The notes beneath the pieces were generated by a model. It was not told where the DNA came from and searched no databases. It saw nothing but the letters and a program-made list of their open reading frames with translations. Shown one piece after another: positions 1 through 40,483 of a stretch of 64,000 bases of DNA. The number at the start of each line of letters is the position of its first letter. Positions within the stretch are counted from its first letter, which is position 1. Source of the stretch: a phage; the sequence record PX104380.1; one strand, 5' to 3'. Made by a program: the position numbers and the translations under genes.

Positions 1-667
1 CAGCTTCAAGAGCTACTACATAATTCGCGTGTTCACCTTCAAATTTAGCAGCACCTTGTTTACCTTTTGCCCAGAGCAGAAGTTTATAATTTCCTGGTTG
101 CATTTTCATATTTGCCATATTGATAATGAAATTAAATGTATTTTCACCATCATAATCACCAAGAGTCAAAGAATATTTAACACGTGTCAGAGCAGAATCT
201 TCTACTTTATTAAAACCGTTAATTACGATTTTACCTTCTTTTACCGTGATAGCAATTGTATCAATTTGCAGACCACGAGATACACGCAACAGTTGTTGAA
301 GGTCTTCAGCTTTAATTTCAGTAACAACAGATGCTACCGGGAATGGAATTGGTTTATTAGGAGCAACTACTGTACTCGGATCGGCTGCTGGCCAAAAAAT
401 TGTTGAACGGGCATCAGCAATTTTAATATTTCCATCTTCTGACTGGGAAATTTCTGCATCATCATTAACTAGAGACAGAATACCGAGAAAACCGTTCAAA
501 TCGTAAATTGCTACATCAAAATCAATAGTGTCAGAAATATTTGCTTCCGCATAAGTTGTACCATTAACTGCGCGAGTCATAATAAATTGACCGGATTTAA
601 GCATAATACCGGAGTTAATAGTAGCGAAATTTTTCAAAATATTCAGTGTGTCTTTAGATAATTTCAT
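1..667 (-). CDS. 45: DNA polymerase sliding clamp gp45, N-terminal ~222 codons; 3' end lies beyond window start
   Basis: Reverse-complement translation from ATG at 667 reads MKLSKDTLNILKNFATINSGIMLKSGQF..., which I recognise as T4 gp45; ORF runs off the window edge; ATGA overlap with upstream ORF stop. Confidence 0.9.
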   Translation of the reverse strand, partial: MKLSKDTLNILKNFATINSGIMLKSGQFIMTRAVNGTTYAEANISDTIDFDVAIYDLNGFLGILSLVNDDAEISQSEDGNIKIADARSTIFWPAADPSTVVAPNKPIPFPVASVVTEIKAEDLQQLLRVSRGLQIDTIAITVKEGKIVINGFNKVEDSALTRVKYSLTLGDYDGENTFNFIINMANMKMQPGNYKLLLWAKGKQGAAKFEGEHANYVVALEA

Positions 668-1551
668 TTCAATTTCCTATTTACATAATAGTTAGACCAG
701 GACCGTACAGCACCCTGATAAGATTCGTCGTTAAACCCATTAGCTACTGCAATTTTACGAAATTTATTATAACTCGGTTTTCCGTAAGCATGCCATAAAG
801 ATTTTAATTCATCTTCATGTTCAATCCAAGTTCCTCTAGCTTTAGATTTTCTAAATTTTGATTTGAATTCCGGTGAATTATTTCTAACAGTTGCTTGAAT
901 TGAAGCTCTCTGTCTTCTTTCAGCATTATTCCATAACTCTTTTTGAGATTTAGAAATTTTTGATTTTACACTTTCTGAATTCATTATATCACTAAACTTT
1001 TTAGCATAACTGCAATCAAGATATTTCAATTTCATCTTATTTGAAAGTTTAAGCTTTTTCTCATCGGTCCAGTGATTCTTCATTGAATTAGATATTTTGT
1101 ATTTTACGTCAGAACTATGTTTGTAACCTTTACGAATACCAACATAATCGGGCGTAATTTCAGATTGCGAAAGCTTTACAATTTTTCCAGTTAAAACATT
1201 TTTATATGTTCCATATCCTTTAGCGCCAATTAAAGTATTTTCATCTGCGTATGCTTTATTAAAATATTTTATATTACTTTTTGCTTTAACTTTTAATTGA
1301 AAAAATCTTTCCAATTTTCTTGGATCTAATATAGTTTCAGCTAAAATTTTGACGGTATATTTAGTGGTTTTAATAAGCTCAAAATATTCATCGCTATAAC
1401 TCGATGACACGCTTCCAGTATAAATCTTTCCAGCTGAATCAATTATATTTGTTCCATCGAAAATTGCGTCAATTTTCGAACCTATATAATAACATGGAAA
1501 AATATTTTTAGCTTCCCGCTCTGGAAAGCTAATAAGATATACTAAATTCAT
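664..1551 (-). mobile_element. GIY-YIG family (seg-like) putative homing endonuclease, 295 aa
   Basis: N-terminal LVYLIS...(11 aa)...YYIGSK matches GIY-(10-11)-YIG spacing; K/R/S-rich C-terminal half typical of DNA-binding tails; sits between gene 45 and rpbA where I recall no gene in T4. Confidence 0.6.
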
Positions 1552-1937
1552 TTATTAAAATCAGCCACAATTGTTTCCGCAACAAGTTGAGCAGCAACAA
1601 TTAGACGTTCATCTGCATTACCGCAATAATCATCTTCAAGACGTTCACCGCATGAAGTCATAATAAATTTAGCGCCAGCATTTAGAGATTCTGTCGTATG
1701 TTTACGCATTAGTTCAATCCATTTATCACTCACTTCACGATCGATAGCTTCATAATACGCATGACGAGCAGGTGCAGATTTAATTTTGTTCTGTATAACT
1801 TCCATTGCGTTATCAGAAAGAGACAAAACCCATGCTCGACGAATTTTATTTTGGTTTTGCGGATTTGATTCAGAACGCACGTGTTTTGGCTGAATATCTT
1901 TTACATCAACAGTATAATTCACAGTAATTTTAGTCAT
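1548..1937 (-). CDS. rpbA: RNA polymerase-binding protein RpbA (129 aa)
   Basis: Size and position between gene 45 and gene 46 as in T4; overlapping stop/start with neighbour. Confidence 0.7.
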
Positions 1938-1946
1938 AATACACCT

Positions 1947-2135
1947 TTAGTCATAATAATCAGTAACAGTCCAAGCTTCATTTCTATTGGACATTATTTT
2001 TGTATATTCTGCTTTAAATGCATTCCTAAGCATAGATTCAGTAACTATATGCTCTTCATTGGAAAAATTATTTCTCAGAATATATCGTTTTATTTCAGGA
2101 AAAGTTAATAAATGCTGTCCAGTTGAATATTCCAT
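1947..2135 (-). CDS. hypothetical protein (45.2-like small ORF, 62 aa)
   Basis: Minus-strand ORF filling the gap between rpbA and gene 46. Confidence 0.5.
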   Translation of the reverse strand: MEYSTGQHLLTFPEIKRYILRNNFSNEEHIVTESMLRNAFKAEYTKIMSNRNEAWTVTDYYD

Positions 2136-2190
2136 GTTTTTCCTCCATAGAGATTATACTCTAATAAATTAAAGCATAATCTCTTATAAA

Positions 2191-3873
2191 TTAAACCATT
2201 ACAGTAAATCGACCAACTTTCTTCATTTGAAGATGCTGACCGTATTCTTGTGGGTCATGGTCTTTATGCGAAATTATAAAAACATTAGTGTTTTTCATTG
2301 AATTTATAATATTAGCTACACCTTTAATACCTTCGGCATCAAATGACCCATCAAACACTTCATCGAGTATTAATGTACTAATACTAACACCAGATACAAT
2401 AGAAGCAATATCACGCCAAGTAAATAAAAGAGCAATATCGATTCGTGCCTTTTCACCTTCACTAAATGAAGCATAACTAAAATCTTCGCGACCACGGGAT
2501 TTAATTGTCTCATTAAATTCTTCATCTAATGTAAACACATAATCCGCTTCCATTATTTTAAGATAATGGTTAATCTGCTTATTAAATAATGGAATGTACT
2601 TTTTAATAATAGCACCTTTAATACCAGAATCTTTGAGCATATCAGTCAAAATTCCTCGGTGGTATTTTTCCATTACTAAATTAGTTTTTGTCTTAACAAT
2701 TTTATCAAGTTCTTCTTGAAGCAGTGCTATTTCATCAGCATGGTCAATAAACTCAGAAGATGCTTTTTCTATAGCCGCTTTAACTTTTTTAGCTTTATCT
2801 ACCGTCGTGATTAGAGATTGCTTTTTATTGCGAATATCATTTGCCAACGACTGTTGGGTTTTAATATTATCTCGGTATTCATCAACAAGAACTTTTAAAT
2901 TATCACGATGTGTTGAAAGCTGTTCAAACGAATGCGTGCATTCAGAAACTTTATCTTTAATTTTAGAAACAACTTTATCACCGGAACTCAATTGTGACAA
3001 ACAGGTTGGACATAATCCACTTTCGTGATACATATTAATGACTTTATTATACGAGTCAATTTTTGATTTAATTAAAACTGCTTCTTGACCGATTTTATTA
3101 AATGCATCAGTCGGGTCTTCATCCAAAACAATATTAACTAATCTTTCATTAGCTTCTTCTATTTCCGATTTTAGCGTTCTAGCTTCTTTTGCCAAATCAT
3201 CATACATATTTTGAAGACGAGTAAGGTTGTCACCTGTTAATTTTTTCTGGCGTTCAACGTTATCATTATATATTTTAATTTGTTGGATAATACTATCTTT
3301 TTTAACATCAAGCACTTGGTTTTGTGAATTTAATTCACGTATTAGTGCTTTATTAAGCTTATCCATTTCAGCTAATGTTCCTACCTCAAGCAGGTCTTCC
3401 ACAAGCTTTCTTCGCGCAGGGGTCGACAAACCCATGAAAGGGGTATACCCTGCTGTACCAAGGACAACAATCTGCTTGAAACTGGCATATGACATTCCGA
3501 TAAGCTGTTCAAATTCTGCTTGGAAATCTTTACTGCTGGCAGATTCATTAAGACGTGTACCGTTAACGGTGATTTCGAAAACGTTTGGTTTTTGTCCTCT
3601 TTTGATATAATACTTTTTCTCATCATATTCCATCCACAGTTCAACTAAAAGTTCTTTCTTATTTGTGCTGTTTATTAATTGACCTTTCTTTACATCACGA
3701 AATGGCTTACCAAAAAGCCCAAATGTGATGGCTTCTAACATAGTAGACTTACCACCGCCATTTCGTCCAGTAATAAGAGTTTTTTGAACCTTATCTAATT
3801 GAATGTCAACTCCATTTTGACCAACTGACATTATATTTTTATATTTTACTCGGTTTAATTTAAAATTCTTCAC
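2191..3873 (-). CDS. 46: recombination endonuclease subunit gp46 (SbcC/Rad50-like ATPase), 560 aa
   Basis: Walker A GRNGGGKST near N-terminus, long coiled-coil middle, ABC signature/Walker B at C-terminus; length equals T4 gp46. Confidence 0.95.
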   Translation of the reverse strand: MKNFKLNRVKYKNIMSVGQNGVDIQLDKVQKTLITGRNGGGKSTMLEAITFGLFGKPFRDVKKGQLINSTNKKELLVELWMEYDEKKYYIKRGQKPNVFEITVNGTRLNESASSKDFQAEFEQLIGMSYASFKQIVVLGTAGYTPFMGLSTPARRKLVEDLLEVGTLAEMDKLNKALIRELNSQNQVLDVKKDSIIQQIKIYNDNVERQKKLTGDNLTRLQNMYDDLAKEARTLKSEIEEANERLVNIVLDEDPTDAFNKIGQEAVLIKSKIDSYNKVINMYHESGLCPTCLSQLSSGDKVVSKIKDKVSECTHSFEQLSTHRDNLKVLVDEYRDNIKTQQSLANDIRNKKQSLITTVDKAKKVKAAIEKASSEFIDHADEIALLQEELDKIVKTKTNLVMEKYHRGILTDMLKDSGIKGAIIKKYIPLFNKQINHYLKIMEADYVFTLDEEFNETIKSRGREDFSYASFSEGEKARIDIALLFTWRDIASIVSGVSISTLILDEVFDGSFDAEGIKGVANIINSMKNTNVFIISHKDHDPQEYGQHLQMKKVGRFTVMV

Positions 3874-10796: not shown

Positions 10797-11267
10797 TTAA
10801 TCATGTGTCCACACCCCATCGGTATTTGACCAAAGTCGCTGATTATCTGATCCTCGCCACAGCTTTTTAGTCGGAAGATTTTTCTCATACTTCCCATCAA
10901 TAATAACATCAACATATTTAAGCATTTCTAGTTGTTTAATATCTTCAAACTTATATCCTGTCCACAACCAAATGCTTTTATTGGGATAAAGATTTTTAAT
11001 AGTTTGAACCACAGAGTGAATCACGTCTCTGTTATCAGGATAAAGAGGGTCACCTCCGGTTATAGTTAATCCTTCTATATAATCATTATTCAAACATTCA
11101 ATCAATTGTTCTAGTGTTTCACCAGTGAATGGAATACCATTTCTAGCATTCCATGTTGATTTATTATAACACCCTTCGCATTTATGCAAACAACCTGTAA
11201 CGAAAAGAACGACCCTGCATCCAGGGCCATTCACAAAGCAGCACGGGTATATTCTGTCATAATTCAT
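10797..11267 (-). CDS. nrdG: anaerobic ribonucleotide reductase activating protein NrdG (radical SAM)
   Basis: MNYDRIYPCCFVNGPGCR...CLHKCEGCYN cysteine cluster; start at internal Met gives ATGA overlap with upstream ORF. Confidence 0.85.
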   Translation of the reverse strand: MNYDRIYPCCFVNGPGCRVVLFVTGCLHKCEGCYNKSTWNARNGIPFTGETLEQLIECLNNDYIEGLTITGGDPLYPDNRDVIHSVVQTIKNLYPNKSIWLWTGYKFEDIKQLEMLKYVDVIIDGKYEKNLPTKKLWRGSDNQRLWSNTDGVWTHD

Positions 11268-12094
11268 AATAATATCCAATTTTTCCAAGCTTCATCAGTA
11301 GAATTACAGCGTTTTAGTATAAGATGTCTAGAAACTTTTATGGCATTTGAGCACTTTTTAATTGAATCATATTTAATACCGTCAACTGAAACGGTTTTGC
11401 TCGTTGGAGAAATTTTTCCATACATTGGATTTTTTGAACCAACTTGAAGTCCTTTTAAAGCTTTTGAAAGCTTTTGTCTAGATTCCAATGACATGGGAGA
11501 ATTCTTTTTACCTTCAATAATTCGCTTGCGATGAAGTTCGCGTTCTTCTTCGCTCAAAGAATTGTAATATTTTTTAACACCGTTTGATATAGATAATTTA
11601 TCTTTCTCAGACCGCTCTCCAACTAATTTACTTCTAACATCTTTTCGCTTCATAGCTATGCTTACAGCTTTATTTAAATTTGCTTGATGCTCTGGCGTAC
11701 GTTTATATTTCTTTAAAGCACGTGAAATAGCTATTTTAGTTTCTACTGTTTTCTTTTTACCTTTATTTGCTAAACTATTTTTGTGGCGATGTTCAAGTGT
11801 CTGTTCATAAGCAGTTCCACCTTTTCCACCGGGTTTAATATTATATGTATTTTCTTTTAGACAATACTCTTCGGTTACAAGTTCAGCTTCTTTATCATAC
11901 ATTTGTTTTTCATTATCAAAAACATGTAAAATTTCTTTATTAAAATTTTTTCTACCATATTTTAATAAAGCGGCACGAATCAATGTTCCTGATCCCATAT
12001 AACCGTCATTTATGTTATCGGTGCTATGCGCACCGATATATTCCTTTGAATTAATTATATTTGTTATTTTATAAATTATATAATACCTATGCAT
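11264..12094 (-). mobile_element. GIY-YIG homing endonuclease ORF (276 aa) inserted between nrdD and nrdG
   Basis: N-terminal YYIIYKITNIINSKEYIGAHS is a canonical GIY-YIG motif; basic C-terminal DNA-binding half. Confidence 0.7.
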
Positions 12095-21687: not shown

Positions 21688-22407
21688 TTAGGATTCTTCT
21701 AAATGTCTTTTCTGAAAAGTTGATACCATACTACGATACGGTTCATTTGGATACCCGTGTTTTATAGCTTCCTTTGTAAATTTTCTCCATCCATATTTAG
21801 TTTCTTTCCAAAGCTCGAATAATTCATCTTCATACTGCCATATAGTTAAATGAGAACGCTTTGCAGCTTTAATTCCATTAATATGCTTTTCTTTTACTAC
21901 AGGATTGCTTAGTTTCTTTTTAATAATATTACTAACTTTTCTAACAAAAACTGGGTCCTTATATCGTTGCGAAGTTTTTATTGAAGTGTTTAATTTAGCT
22001 TCCGGTGTGGATGTGACCTCTTTCATCTTTTTCTTCATATGCTGTATATGATTAGGATTTTTCCATAAATTTATAGAATGCTTTTTGCATTTTATCCTAG
22101 TTTCATCTGCAACCTTTCCTCCTTCACCTCCGTATGACAGGTTAACACAGTTTTTTCCATATTTCAATTTACCTGCCATGATATATAATATTTCAGCTTG
22201 TACCATTTTATCATAATTATCAAAAACTTCTAAAACCGTTTTTGATAATATGTGGTCATTTGACACTTTTACACGTTCTATATAATTTCCACTACCAACA
22301 TACGAATCATTGATGTTATTAGTTATATGTCGACCATAATAGTATTTCTTAATACCTGTCTTTAAATTTAATATTTCAGTTTTATAGATAGTAAAATATT
22401 TTTTCAT
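21688..22407 (-). mobile_element. divergent GIY-YIG-like putative endonuclease (239 aa)
   Basis: IYKTE...KYYYGRHITNNINDSYVGSG parallels KEYIGAHSTDNINDGYMGSG of the ORF at 11264-12094; basic C-terminal half. Confidence 0.4.
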
Positions 22408-33708: not shown

Positions 33709-34182
33709 TTATTTGAACGATTTAACGTACTGAATAGAACCTTTACTATTTACAAAGGCAATTTTACCATTTTTATTATACATGGTAGCAGTACGTTGAT
33801 AACCATAAGTTTGTTTACCAGATTGATAACCAACTAATGCGAAATTATCTTCGCCCATTTTATTCTGTTTAGCGCGAATGCGTTCATGACCATGTGCCAT
33901 AAGAACCTTAGCATCACCAGTTACAATGGATCGACGAGTTTTTTCATCTTCAACTGTATTAACAAAGTCGTCAAATGAATCAAATTTAGCATGAGATTTA
34001 TTATACAGTTTTCCATCTACTGCATAATTATATCCCTGTACATCCATCTCAACTTCTGTACCATCATCCAATACAGCAGTAATTTTCTGTCCTTTTTTAA
34101 ATTTCAAAAGATCAGTAAAAGATTCAGCAATAATTTGAGAATTAATAGCTGCTTCAGTGATAAATTCTTGATATGTTTTCAT
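33709..34182 (-). CDS. capsid internal protein with MKTYQEF capsid-targeting sequence (157 aa)
   Basis: N-terminus MKTYQEFITEA matches the internal-protein capsid-targeting sequence; sits next to e as ipIII does in T4. Confidence 0.65.
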   Translation of the reverse strand: MKTYQEFITEAAINSQIIAESFTDLLKFKKGQKITAVLDDGTEVEMDVQGYNYAVDGKLYNKSHAKFDSFDDFVNTVEDEKTRRSIVTGDAKVLMAHGHERIRAKQNKMGEDNFALVGYQSGKQTYGYQRTATMYNKNGKIAFVNSKGSIQYVKSFK

Positions 34183-39096: not shown

Positions 39097-39447
39097 TTAA
39101 TATTCTTTTAAAGCATAAATCTGTTTACGGCGTTCACGCCATAAATCAATTGCTTCATACGCGGATTCAACATTTCGAATTGGACGGCATTTATATAAAG
39201 ATTTGTGATTTTGATATTGCGTAGATAACGGAATTTTATCTAAAAGGTCTTTACGTTCAAAGTATTCGTAACCATCTAAGCCAAATGAACGATTTTTGAG
39301 AAATTGCCAATGACCAAATTCGTTTTGAATATAAATATAATCCGCGTGTTGATAAAGTAAATTAATTTCACGAAATGAGATATGTTTTTCATATTCATTG
39401 AAGTAAAATGTTAAATCATGAACTACTAAATAAACATTACCTTTCAT
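39097..39447 (-). CDS. hypothetical protein within tRNA region (116 aa)
   Basis: Minus-strand ORF between tRNA-Arg and small RNA region. Confidence 0.5.
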   Translation of the reverse strand: MKGNVYLVVHDLTFYFNEYEKHISFREINLLYQHADYIYIQNEFGHWQFLKNRSFGLDGYEYFERKDLLDKIPLSTQYQNHKSLYKCRPIRNVESAYEAIDLWRERRKQIYALKEY

Positions 39448-39465
39448 ATTTTCCTCACTTATAAT

Positions 39466-39541
39466 TGGTCGAGGCAGTAGGGATCGAACCTACGACCTAG
39501 GACTTAGAAGGTCCTTGCTCTTCCTTCTGAGCTATGCCCCG
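39466..39541 (-). tRNA. tRNA-Arg (anticodon UCU)
   Basis: Manual fold: acceptor CGGGGCA/TGCCTCG, anticodon loop CTTCTAA, T-arm GGTTCGATCC, encoded CCA. Confidence 0.85.
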
Positions 39542-39545
39542 TAAT

Positions 39546-39621
39546 TGGGGTGACCGATGGGAGTCGAACCCATGACTACGAGAATCACAATCTCGAGTTC
39601 TACCAACTGAACTACGGCCAC
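39546..39621 (-). tRNA. tRNA-His (anticodon GUG)
   Basis: Manual fold: acceptor GTGGCCG/CGGTCAC, discriminator C73, anticodon loop TTGTGAT. Confidence 0.8.
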
Positions 39622-39735
39622 ATTAATACCTACTCCAACAATCAAGATGTCTTCACACGAAATTAAGAGAAGAGTGATCAGTTCAACCCCTATAATCGCG
39701 TCAAGTAGATATTAATGTGACAGTTGTCACAAATT

Positions 39736-39810
39736 TGGCGGACGTGATAGGATTCGAACCTATAACCAATCGCTTAACAGGCGATCGCTCTGCCATTGAG
39801 CTACACATCC
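39736..39810 (-). tRNA. tRNA-Asn (anticodon GUU)
   Basis: Manual fold: acceptor GGATGTG/CACGTCC, anticodon stem ATCGC/GCGAT, loop CTGTTAA. Confidence 0.8.
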
Positions 39811-39814
39811 AAAT

Positions 39815-39901
39815 TGGTGGGGAGTGGTGGAGTCGAACCACCCGAGTCGCAATGACAATGAATTTACAGTCCACACCGCTACCTCTACGGGATAACTCCC
39901 C
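39815..39901 (-). tRNA. tRNA-Tyr (anticodon GUA), long variable arm
   Basis: Manual fold: acceptor GGGGAGT/ACTCCCC, anticodon loop CTGTAAA, 87 nt. Confidence 0.7.
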
Positions 39902-39910
39902 AAATTAATT

Positions 39911-39985
39911 TGGTGGCCCTGGGTGGAATTGAACCACCATCTGGCGATTATGAGTCGCTTGCTTGAACCTTCCAGCTACAGGGCC
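39911..39985 (-). tRNA. tRNA with CAU anticodon (Ile-lysidine type as in T4, or Met)
   Basis: Manual fold: acceptor GGCCCTG/CAGGGCC, anticodon loop CTCATAA. Confidence 0.75.
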
Positions 39986-39986
39986 T

Positions 39987-40062
39987 TGGTGCTGATTAAC
40001 GGAATCGAACCGCCGACCTTCTCATTACAAGTGAGTTGCTCTACCTACTGAGCTAAATCAGC
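39987..40062 (-). tRNA. tRNA-Thr (anticodon UGU)
   Basis: Manual fold: acceptor GCTGATT/AATCAGC, anticodon loop CTTGTAA. Confidence 0.8.
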
Positions 40063-40067
40063 AAAAC

Positions 40068-40157
40068 TGGCGGAGGTGATAGGATTCGAACCTATGAATC
40101 GCCGGAGCGACTGCCGGTTTTCAAGACCGGTGCATTCAACCACTCTGCCACACCTCC
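40068..40157 (-). tRNA. tRNA-Ser (anticodon UGA), long variable arm
   Basis: Manual fold: acceptor GGAGGTG/CACCTCC, anticodon stem CCGGT/ACCGG, loop CTTGAAA, 90 nt. Confidence 0.8.
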
Positions 40158-40159
40158 AG

Positions 40160-40233
40160 TCTCCATACAAGGATTTGAACCTTGGACCTCCTGATCCCAA
40201 ATCAGGCGCTCTACCAAACTGAGCTACACGGAG
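40160..40233 (-). tRNA. tRNA-Pro (anticodon UGG), 3' CCA not encoded
   Basis: Manual fold: acceptor CTCCGTG/TATGGAG, anticodon stem CCTGA/TCAGG, loop TTTGGGA. Confidence 0.8.
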
Positions 40234-40243
40234 TAAATTAAAT

Positions 40244-40317
<74 letters not shown>

Positions 40318-40322
40318 AAATT

Positions 40323-40409
40323 TGGTGCGAGAAGTGGGACTCGAACCCACAAGGAAATCATTCCGCAGCATTTTAAGTGCTGTGCCTTTACCAATTTGAC
40401 CATTCTCGC
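40323..40409 (-). tRNA. tRNA-Leu (anticodon UAA), long variable arm
   Basis: Manual fold: acceptor GCGAGAA/TTCTCGC, anticodon stem CAGCA/TGCTG, loop CTTAAAA. Confidence 0.85.
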
Positions 40410-40410
40410 G

Positions 40411-40483
40411 CTGGGAATAAAGGACTCGAACCTTTGCATCCTGGAATCAAAATCCAGTGCCTTACCAACTTGGCTAATTCCCA
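40411..40483 (-). tRNA. tRNA-Gln (anticodon UUG), 3' CCA not encoded
   Basis: Manual fold: acceptor TGGGAAT/ATTCCCA (U1-A72), anticodon stem CTGGA/TCCAG, loop TTTTGAT. Confidence 0.85.

Follow-up and report, generated by a model that had tools for sequence, protein, structure and literature searches.

An open reading frame (ORF) of 295 codons lies between rpbA and gene 45, the sliding clamp gene, in a 64,000-nucleotide stretch of phage DNA (sequence record PX104380.1; this whole stretch is called the window below, and positions refer to it). We conclude that it most probably encodes a functional, free-standing homing endonuclease of the GIY-YIG superfamily, belonging to a SegG-like sub-clade and made of a nuclease domain of about 100 residues followed by a basic DNA-binding region. 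A sequence-only reading of the window had proposed a free-standing GIY-YIG homing endonuclease at this place. Homology, predicted fold and presence/absence polymorphism now agree with that proposal, the activity being a prediction from sequence. The gene is an ordinary, uncharacterised member of a well-known class; what is new is its insertion site within the SegG-like branch. No published description of an rpbA/45 endonuclease gene was found in the literature searched.

An additional gene between rpbA and gene 45

The first 4 kb of the window correspond to a T4-type replication cluster, read antisense. The ORF listing gives an ATG-to-TGA frame at 664..1551, as the sequence-only reading had it, on the minus strand, and the position wedged between gene 45 and rpbA was confirmed, rpbA being recognised upstream by Pfam and gene 45 downstream by a product near-identical to T4 gp45. 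The ATGA overlaps claimed for both sides are also present: the rpbA stop codon runs into the ATG of the ORF at 1548-1551, as does the TGA of the ORF into the ATG of gene 45 at 664-667. In T4, rpbA and 45 are indeed neighbours, separated by a 55-bp spacer without ORF.

On alignment, homology to T4 ends after ...GATTTTAAT in rpbA and picks up at the gene 45 Shine-Dalgarno sequence AGGAAA, so that about 875 bp have replaced about 51 bp of spacer. The last sense codon of rpbA is AAA (Lys) in phages that have the additional gene (carriers) versus CGT (Arg) in those that do not (non-carriers). GC content of the ORF is 29.4%, against about 35-36% in the adjoining genes. As expected of the Seg class, the ORF stands alone, without intron or intein, and is co-oriented with the flanking genes. 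The junction with rpbA takes other forms in the carriers AV118 (TGA-5 nt-ATG) and TH15 (GTGA).

Assignment to a SegG-like branch of the GIY-YIG superfamily

T4 SegG and the window protein share 39% identity over residues 1-103 (BLASTP, E 6e-16), and tblastn also matched the annotated segG gene. Two PHROG families labelled 'homing endonuclease', 655 and 7504, were matched with E values of 3e-32 and 3e-17. By an exhaustive profile search, the family comprises 147 clusters at E < 1e-30. Among 150 aligned representatives, N98 is invariant, and Y5, Y22, G24, K26, Y44, S47, E81 and F97 are conserved in at least 90%.

The GIY and YIG motifs, normally separated by 10-11 residues, had been placed 11 residues apart by the sequence-only reading, which proved wrong: they correspond to L3-V4-Y5 and Y22-I23-G24, with 16 residues between them, and T4 SegG likewise has 16. 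With so atypical a motif, and without a match to the Pfam GIY-YIG model, the assignment needed SegG homology, profile alignment and fold comparison together.

For the profile alignment, the family's N-terminal domain was compared with I-TevI, I-TevII, SegA, SegB, SegC, SegF and the two other seg genes of the window. With hhalign the probability was 89% (E 2e-6); Y22-I23-G24 aligned with Y17-V18-G19 of I-TevI, E81 with E75 and N98 with N90, while the Y-x-GSS motif fell on the H40-S41-S42 region of I-TevI (GYMGSG in the Segs). Where the Seg motif 'YIGxH' has its conserved His, this family has the invariant K26. An AlphaFold2 model, built with 15 homologues, is confident over residues 1-100 (block means 78-95) and puts the GIY- and YIG-equivalent motifs on two strands (2-8 and 21-26) separated by a short helix (10-15). 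This predicted N-terminal fold most resembles the I-TevI catalytic domain and has the alpha/beta topology of the catalytic domains of I-TevI, UvrC and Eco29kI. Fold matches in BFVD were phage proteins labelled SegG, Gp32.1, 'Seg-like', 'GIY-YIG domain' and 'NUMOD'.

Several negative results count against the assignment. The protein has no match to Pfam GIY-YIG (PF01541) at E <= 1 and none in NCBIfam; a PDB sequence search had no nuclease among its matches, Foldseek with the full-length model gave nothing significant, and no activity assay of the endonuclease was found in the literature searched. The curated model SegE_GIY-YIG (PF19835) did not match the window protein at E <= 1 either, and the best Pfam E value was 0.009, to a domain of unknown function. 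Among the 150 relatives, 10 matched SegE_GIY-YIG weakly and none matched PF01541; I-TevI and SegA did have matches to these curated models.

To these must be added the catalytic arginine. Of the residues expected for GIY-YIG enzymes, Glu (E81) and Asn (N98) are in place together with the Tyr of YIG, all near-invariant in the 150 representatives, so this part of the expectation stood. The Arg did not: the segment aligned by hhalign contains no equivalent of I-TevI R27, and no Arg occurs within 14 residues in 79 of the 88 relatives with a recognisable YIG. The helix bearing R27 is absent from SegA, SegB, SegC, SegF and SegG too, according to the profile alignment, and the review PMC2988022 counts SegG, with its preferential inheritance, among the active free-standing endonucleases. 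Since the absence is shared by these proteins, including an active one, it does not refute the GIY-YIG assignment. Judged from the alignments, absence of R27 is a property of the Seg class and no sign of inactivation.

The C-terminal half

The C-terminal half had been described as basic, and it is: residues 106-295 have a pI of 10.0 and a net charge of +24. In its predicted layout, a beta-rich linker leads to some five degenerate helical repeats of NUMOD3-like type (residues ~145-235), which a small helical domain follows. NUMOD3 motifs are characteristic of the DNA-binding regions of homing endonucleases. In the window protein the NUMOD3 match is weak and below threshold (residues 142-158, E 0.65); it is significant in 104 of the 150 relatives. 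The AlphaFold2 model has helices over residues 147-291, at lower confidence there (pLDDT 50-88). The Pfam search detected no zinc finger and no I-TevI_DNA-bd domain in the endonuclease.

Comparison with known endonucleases

The N-terminal 100 residues or so are homologous to those of T4 SegG (gene 32.1, between genes 59 and 32). Both proteins start with MN-[LI]-VY and have YYIGSK, E-R and YFN, the two share the 16-residue GIY/YIG spacing, and PF01541 misses both; SegG is annotated as GIY-YIG in the T4 record and is without a Pfam match as well. Both genes are free-standing, co-oriented with and directly upstream of an essential replication gene, and the expression signals of that downstream gene lie inside the endonuclease ORF, segG carrying the middle and late promoters of gene 32 (PMC2988022) and the rpbA/45 ORF the gene 45 Shine-Dalgarno sequence and promoter-like motifs. 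The two differ past residue ~103, where the C-terminal halves are unrelated and do not align, and in length, SegG having 210 residues against 295. Their insertion sites also differ (59/32 versus rpbA/45), as do their targets. Finally, activity and marker exclusion have been demonstrated for SegG, whereas for the window protein both are predictions.

With I-TevI, encoded in the td intron and the structural model case of GIY-YIG homing endonucleases, the protein shares the aligned YIG, Glu and Asn and the succession of nuclease domain, linker and DNA-binding module. Unlike I-TevI, it is not intron-encoded and has no R27 helix; a short helix interrupts its GIY/YIG hairpin, and an additional beta-hairpin follows YIG. 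SegA, SegB, SegC and SegF, and the two other seg-like ORFs of the window, have the same series YIG - (H/K) - Y-x-GS[GS] - E - N without R27 helix. C-terminal modules of NUMOD3 type are common both in this group and among the relatives of the rpbA/45 gene, and all are sporadically present among T-even phages. The canonical Segs are distinguished by a short GIY-10-YIG hairpin and 'DGYMGSG', and some of them match Pfam GIY-YIG or SegE_GIY-YIG, which the SegG-like clade, including the rpbA/45 gene, does not.

Presence and absence among T4-like phages

A megablast search with window positions 1-2200 matched 626 phage records. Among these, 505 Tequatrovirus records were 95-99% identical, and only 25 contained the ORF, the others matching as two pieces around an empty site. 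The presence/absence polymorphism expected of such a gene was thus found: T4, T2, RB14, AR1, slur03 and HY03, with several hundred Tequatrovirus records, are empty between rpbA and 45. Mosigvirus is polymorphic as well, about 10 of 154 records being occupied (AV118, FL31) by homologues 60% identical to the window protein, and RB69 being empty. In Gaprivervirus, TH15 has a 56%-identical homologue at the same junction. The alleles of all three genera have in common a C-terminus of the form ...NYY(V/A)NRK(x)K, which encodes the Shine-Dalgarno sequence, followed by ATGA onto gene 45. The empty sites of T4 and RB69 are homologous to each other.

Between two Tequatrovirus copies dN/dS is 0.11, and between genera it is 0.16-0.23, which indicates that the protein is under purifying selection. 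Frameshifted copies also occur: in ESh24 (L021 764..1652, a record marked UNVERIFIED) the gene is split in two, in EC121 (L023 764..1510) it is N-terminally truncated to 248 residues, and in Mosigvirus AV115 (L022 902..1796) it is split into 179 and 120 residues. BFVD also contains split versions, of 184 and 120 residues. Such copies are compatible with sequencing error or with the decay phase of a homing-endonuclease life cycle. The label 'homing endonuclease' is already given to the gene in several databases, RefSeq NC_031085 and the BASEL phage PaulHMueller being examples, while most GenBank records call it 'hypothetical protein'.

Junction differences and a candidate target

Flanks of 6 carriers and 5 non-carriers were aligned over ±2.2-2.6 kb, covering genes 46, 45.2, rpbA, 45, 44 and 62. 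Within this range, the only fixed differences were the last rpbA codon and stop, the replaced spacer, and positions +7, +9 and +18 of gene 45. The last three are synonymous, codon 3 changing from CTG to TTA (+7, +9) and codon 6 from GAT to GAC (+18). At codon 3 (661-659) and codon 6 (650), every carrier differs from every non-carrier examined. The rpbA 3' end of carriers falls into at least four haplotypes, several of them identical to non-carrier ones, and linkage to the insertion decays within ~20 bp on each side. Mosigvirus carriers show an independent patch, gene 45 codons 3-9 being heavily substituted relative to RB69 (MKLSRETVNIL versus MKLSKDTIAIL). Columns 1455-1497, which at first appeared linked to the endonuclease, proved to be an artefact of aligning the T4 spacer to ORF sequence.

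Three haplotypes of the gene 45 5' end can be distinguished, T4-type (about 400 records), a slur03-type hybrid and carrier-type, and their changes surround the translation-initiation region, which in T4 is a RegA operator. We had considered the whole diverged 5' end as exclusive to carriers. This was ruled out by codons 7-11, and spacer, codon 3 and codon 6 are the carrier-exclusive features. The slur03-type phages could be conversion products without gene transfer, or the background in which the insertion arose.

A carrier genome must escape its own enzyme, and for that reason we read the recognition site as the spacer plus the first ~20-35 nt of gene 45, which the insertion would have destroyed. 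As the junction holds the only consistent difference between carriers and non-carriers, it is the likeliest place for the target. On these alignments, we give the spacer and the start of gene 45 about even chances of being the cleavage target. Three points speak against it. Codons 7-11 (647-635; DTLNIL versus DTTALL) are found in all carriers and also in ~50 non-carrier records of slur03 type (slur03, HY03). The comparison covers ±2.6 kb in 11 genomes. According to PMC2988022, the cut made by a free-standing endonuclease usually lies at least hundreds of bp away from where its gene is inserted, and by this generalisation a target next to the junction would be atypical.

The enzyme may instead be active at a distant site, hundreds to thousands of bp away, as are SegF, SegG and MobE, the junction polymorphisms being insertion scars. 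We hold this to be rather unlikely. It would be typical of free-standing endonucleases (PMC2988022), SegG, the closest characterised relative, cuts inside gene 32 and off its own insertion site, and the ~50 non-carriers with the codon 7-11 patch look like products of conversion without gene transfer. A distant site would however leave carriers unprotected, unless protection is not sequence-based, as no other fixed difference was seen in the aligned flanks; moreover, two genera have independently accumulated dense substitutions in gene 45 codons 3-9, right beside the insertion.

Expression signals of gene 45 and of the endonuclease

The middle promoter in the T4 spacer, of textbook MotA-box form (TGCTTTA-12-TAAAAT), is deleted in the window. 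Two middle-promoter-like sites lie inside the ORF (Table 1). For the one nearer to gene 45, the Mosigvirus and Gaprivervirus alleles have a perfect MotA box/-10 pair at the homologous place; at the position of the other, AV118, FL31 and TH15 have a perfect TGCTTTA-11-TATAAT. The Mosigvirus and Gaprivervirus ORFs thus contain two perfect sites in sense orientation, TGCTTTA-(11/12)-TATAAT/TATATT, at homologous positions. In AV118 and TH15 the 3.9-kb locus contains no further match, against a chance expectation of 0.04-0.06 per locus. Across the 64 kb of the window there are five TGCTT...TATAAT matches, the site at 790..766 among them, versus 0.5 expected. We suggest that the insertion replaced the MotA-dependent middle promoter of gene 45 and that promoter-like replacements are provided inside the ORF. 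Against this, the promoter calls are motif matches, and one site overlaps conserved amino acids.

A scan for sigma-70-type promoters returned sites no commoner than in shuffled sequence. As a late promoter of gene 45, the only TATAAATA-like candidate was TGTAAATA at 685-678, with one mismatch. It was rejected as a working late promoter, because TGTAAATA is too near the ATG and the transcript would miss the Shine-Dalgarno sequence.

No Shine-Dalgarno sequence was found upstream of the endonuclease ATG, and in all three alleles the start overlaps or abuts the rpbA stop, which suggests weak translation coupled to rpbA. A 10-bp stem-loop followed by an A/U-rich run, in codons 7-15, is present in all Tequatrovirus copies. 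Gaprivervirus TH15 has a different 12-bp stem nearby (L007 ~1528..1563, z -3.1), and Mosigvirus AV118 has none. As a conserved regulatory element or terminator the hairpin at 1532-1508 was rejected, its 101-nt context having z -1.2 versus shuffles and AV118 being without it. It possibly dampens expression, as a translational or transcript-level brake.

Table 1. Features of the rpbA/45 region of the window and of related loci
Feature	Positions	Strand	Basis
Gene 45, sliding clamp; downstream flank, runs past window start	1..667	minus	near-identical to T4 gp45
Gene 45 codons 3-11, diverged patch; candidate recognition/immunity region	635..661	minus	alignments
ATGA overlap, endonuclease stop/gene 45 start	664..667	minus	sequence; kept in AV118, FL31, TH15
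SegG-like free-standing seg-type gene, probable homing endonuclease, 295 aa	664..1551	minus	ORF listing, PHROG, SegG homology
Basic C-terminal half, aa 106-295, presumed DNA-binding	667..1236	minus	pI, charge, AlphaFold2, NUMOD3 in relatives
Gene 45 Shine-Dalgarno AGGAAA, within last endonuclease codons (N-R-K)	673..678	minus	T4 alignment
Middle-promoter-like site TGCTTAC-12-TATAAT in the ORF, ~100 nt upstream of gene 45 ATG	766..790	minus	motif level
Second middle-promoter-like site TGCTAAA-11-TATAAT, more degenerate	983..1006	minus	motif level
N-terminal catalytic domain (predicted), aa 1-101, divergent GIY-YIG fold	1249..1551	minus	motifs LVY3-5, YYIGSK21-26, Y44-x-GS47, E81, FN97-98
10-bp stem-loop, codons 7-15, then A/U-rich run	1508..1532	minus (mRNA sense)	sequence fold
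rpbA, upstream flank	1548..1937	minus	Pfam Phage_RpbA E 7e-42
ATGA overlap, rpbA stop TGA/endonuclease ATG	1548..1551	minus	sequence
45.2	1947..2135	minus	Pfam family match E 2.5e-35
Gene 46	2191..3873	minus	replication cluster order
46/45.2 HNH-type ORFs	L016 5190..5906; L006 421..1137; L007 125..1042	+; -; -	

Other mobile genes and differences from T4

A second endonuclease hotspot is found next door, at the 46/45.2 junction. In Tequatrovirus N2, in Mosigvirus FL31 and probably also G2285, and in Gaprivervirus TH15 it contains an HNH-type ORF of opposite orientation; the site is empty in the window (2136..2190) and in T4.

Elsewhere in the window, a seg-type GIY-YIG ORF of 276 residues (MHRYYIIYKITN...YIGAHST...DGYMGSG; 11264..12094, minus strand) has matches to NUMOD3 and, weakly, to I-TevI_DNA-bd and SegE_GIY-YIG. 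Its neighbours are the nrdG and nrdD homologues; T4 has mobC in this place, and the reference list of PMC2988022 cites SegH as replacing mobC there. A second seg-like ORF (239 residues, 21688..22407, minus strand; ...YYYGRH...SYVGSG...) separates the nrdC.9 and nrdC.10 homologues. T4 does not have it, and although without a Pfam match, it lines up with the catalytic motifs of the canonical Segs.

Relative to T4, the window is without mobB, the nrdD intron with I-TevII, segC plus 5.3, and segB (~6707/6732, 13366/13369, ~48135 and 39098..39965). Its tRNA cluster has 11 tRNAs at 39466..40483, with tRNA-His, Asn, Tyr and Met in addition to those of T4. T4 positions 64942-66384 (denV, ipII, ipIII) have no nucleotide match in the window, where this segment is replaced by ~440 bp with an ORF of 157 residues (33709..34182, minus strand), probably an alternative internal protein.

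Discussion

Gene structure, homology, fold, conserved residues, distribution, purifying selection, linkage confined to the junction and promoter motifs are what the sequences show. From them we infer the following course of events, in which cleavage and homing by the enzyme, the place of its target, the working of the promoters and the coupling of translation are all conditional. The endonuclease would be transcribed within the 45.2-rpbA-45 message, probably, and translated at a low level, probably coupled to rpbA. During mixed infection it would cut the genome of a related phage lacking the gene, at or very near the rpbA/gene 45 junction, and recombinational repair off the carrier genome would copy the endonuclease gene together with short flanking tracts. 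Through the insertion, the essential clamp gene would have lost its MotA-dependent middle promoter. With promoter-like sites and the gene 45 Shine-Dalgarno sequence inside the ORF, a clean deletion would be costly.

It is possible, and we propose it tentatively, that the lineage has been kept at this one junction as a ~5% polymorphism in at least three Tevenvirinae genera, diverging with its hosts, that, unlike SegG, it recognises a target right at its insertion point, made up of the spacer and the translation-initiation region of the clamp gene, and that it is hard to lose after capturing the promoter and Shine-Dalgarno sequence of gene 45.

The gene may instead be an old resident, which would have entered the junction before Tequatrovirus, Mosigvirus and Gaprivervirus split, been transmitted vertically and mostly lost, the patchiness coming from deletion and ordinary recombination. 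Across genera the endonuclease has diverged about as much as the flanking genes (amino acid identity 56-62%, versus 61-78% for gp45 and 45-66% for rpbA), and such neighbour-like divergence is also compatible with long vertical residence and later loss. The gene 45 junction, with its ATGA and N-R-K-encoded Shine-Dalgarno sequence, is alike in the three genera, and some copies (ESh24, EC121 and AV115) are frameshifted. However, the empty spacers of T4 and RB69 are homologous, and in both the middle promoter and the Shine-Dalgarno sequence are complete; repeated loss would have had to restore these exactly, unless it took place by recombination with an empty allele. Carriers also sit on several flank haplotypes common to non-carriers, with linkage decaying over ~20 bp on each side, nuclease-domain residues are under strong purifying selection, and GC content is low compared with the neighbours. 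Altogether we regard long vertical residence without homing as improbable.

A domesticated, catalytically dead derivative, for instance a DNA-binding regulator of gene 45 comparable to I-TevI in its autorepression, would account for the missing R27 equivalent, the atypical 16-residue GIY hairpin, the lack of a Pfam GIY-YIG match and the overlap of the ORF, promoter-like sites included, with the gene 45 translation-initiation region, but it is highly improbable, as SegG is equally atypical (spacing of 16, YYIGSK, no Arg, no Pfam match) yet listed as active and preferentially inherited (PMC2988022), E81, N98, Y5 and Y22 are at least 90% conserved in the 150 representatives, as for a maintained active site, and presence in ~5% argues against a needed regulatory role.

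As a probably functional homing endonuclease, the rpbA/45 gene is of modest interest on three points: persistence at one junction across genera, a probable target at the start of the clamp gene, and apparent promoter capture. If the tentative proposal above is true, it would be a natural case of long-term persistence of a free-standing homing endonuclease by promoter capture, and not through a cycle of invasion, decay and loss. Next to segG and gene 32, the rpbA/45 gene would also provide a second example from nature of an essential replication gene whose expression signals have come to lie within a selfish gene, here at the level of motifs. The SegG-like branch is missed entirely by the automatic domain models tried (Pfam, NCBIfam). 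For the construction of chimeric nucleases, its nuclease domain is a candidate sequence-tolerant component and the C-terminal part a candidate new DNA-binding module.

A marker-exclusion locus at gene 45 is predicted in crosses of carriers with T4, T2 or RB69. The three gene 45 haplotypes, T4-, slur03- and carrier-type, when read as resistance and sensitivity types, have already been sequenced, so that target-site requirements could be directly readable. Presence of the endonuclease is also relevant when therapeutic T4-like phages are mixed in cocktails.

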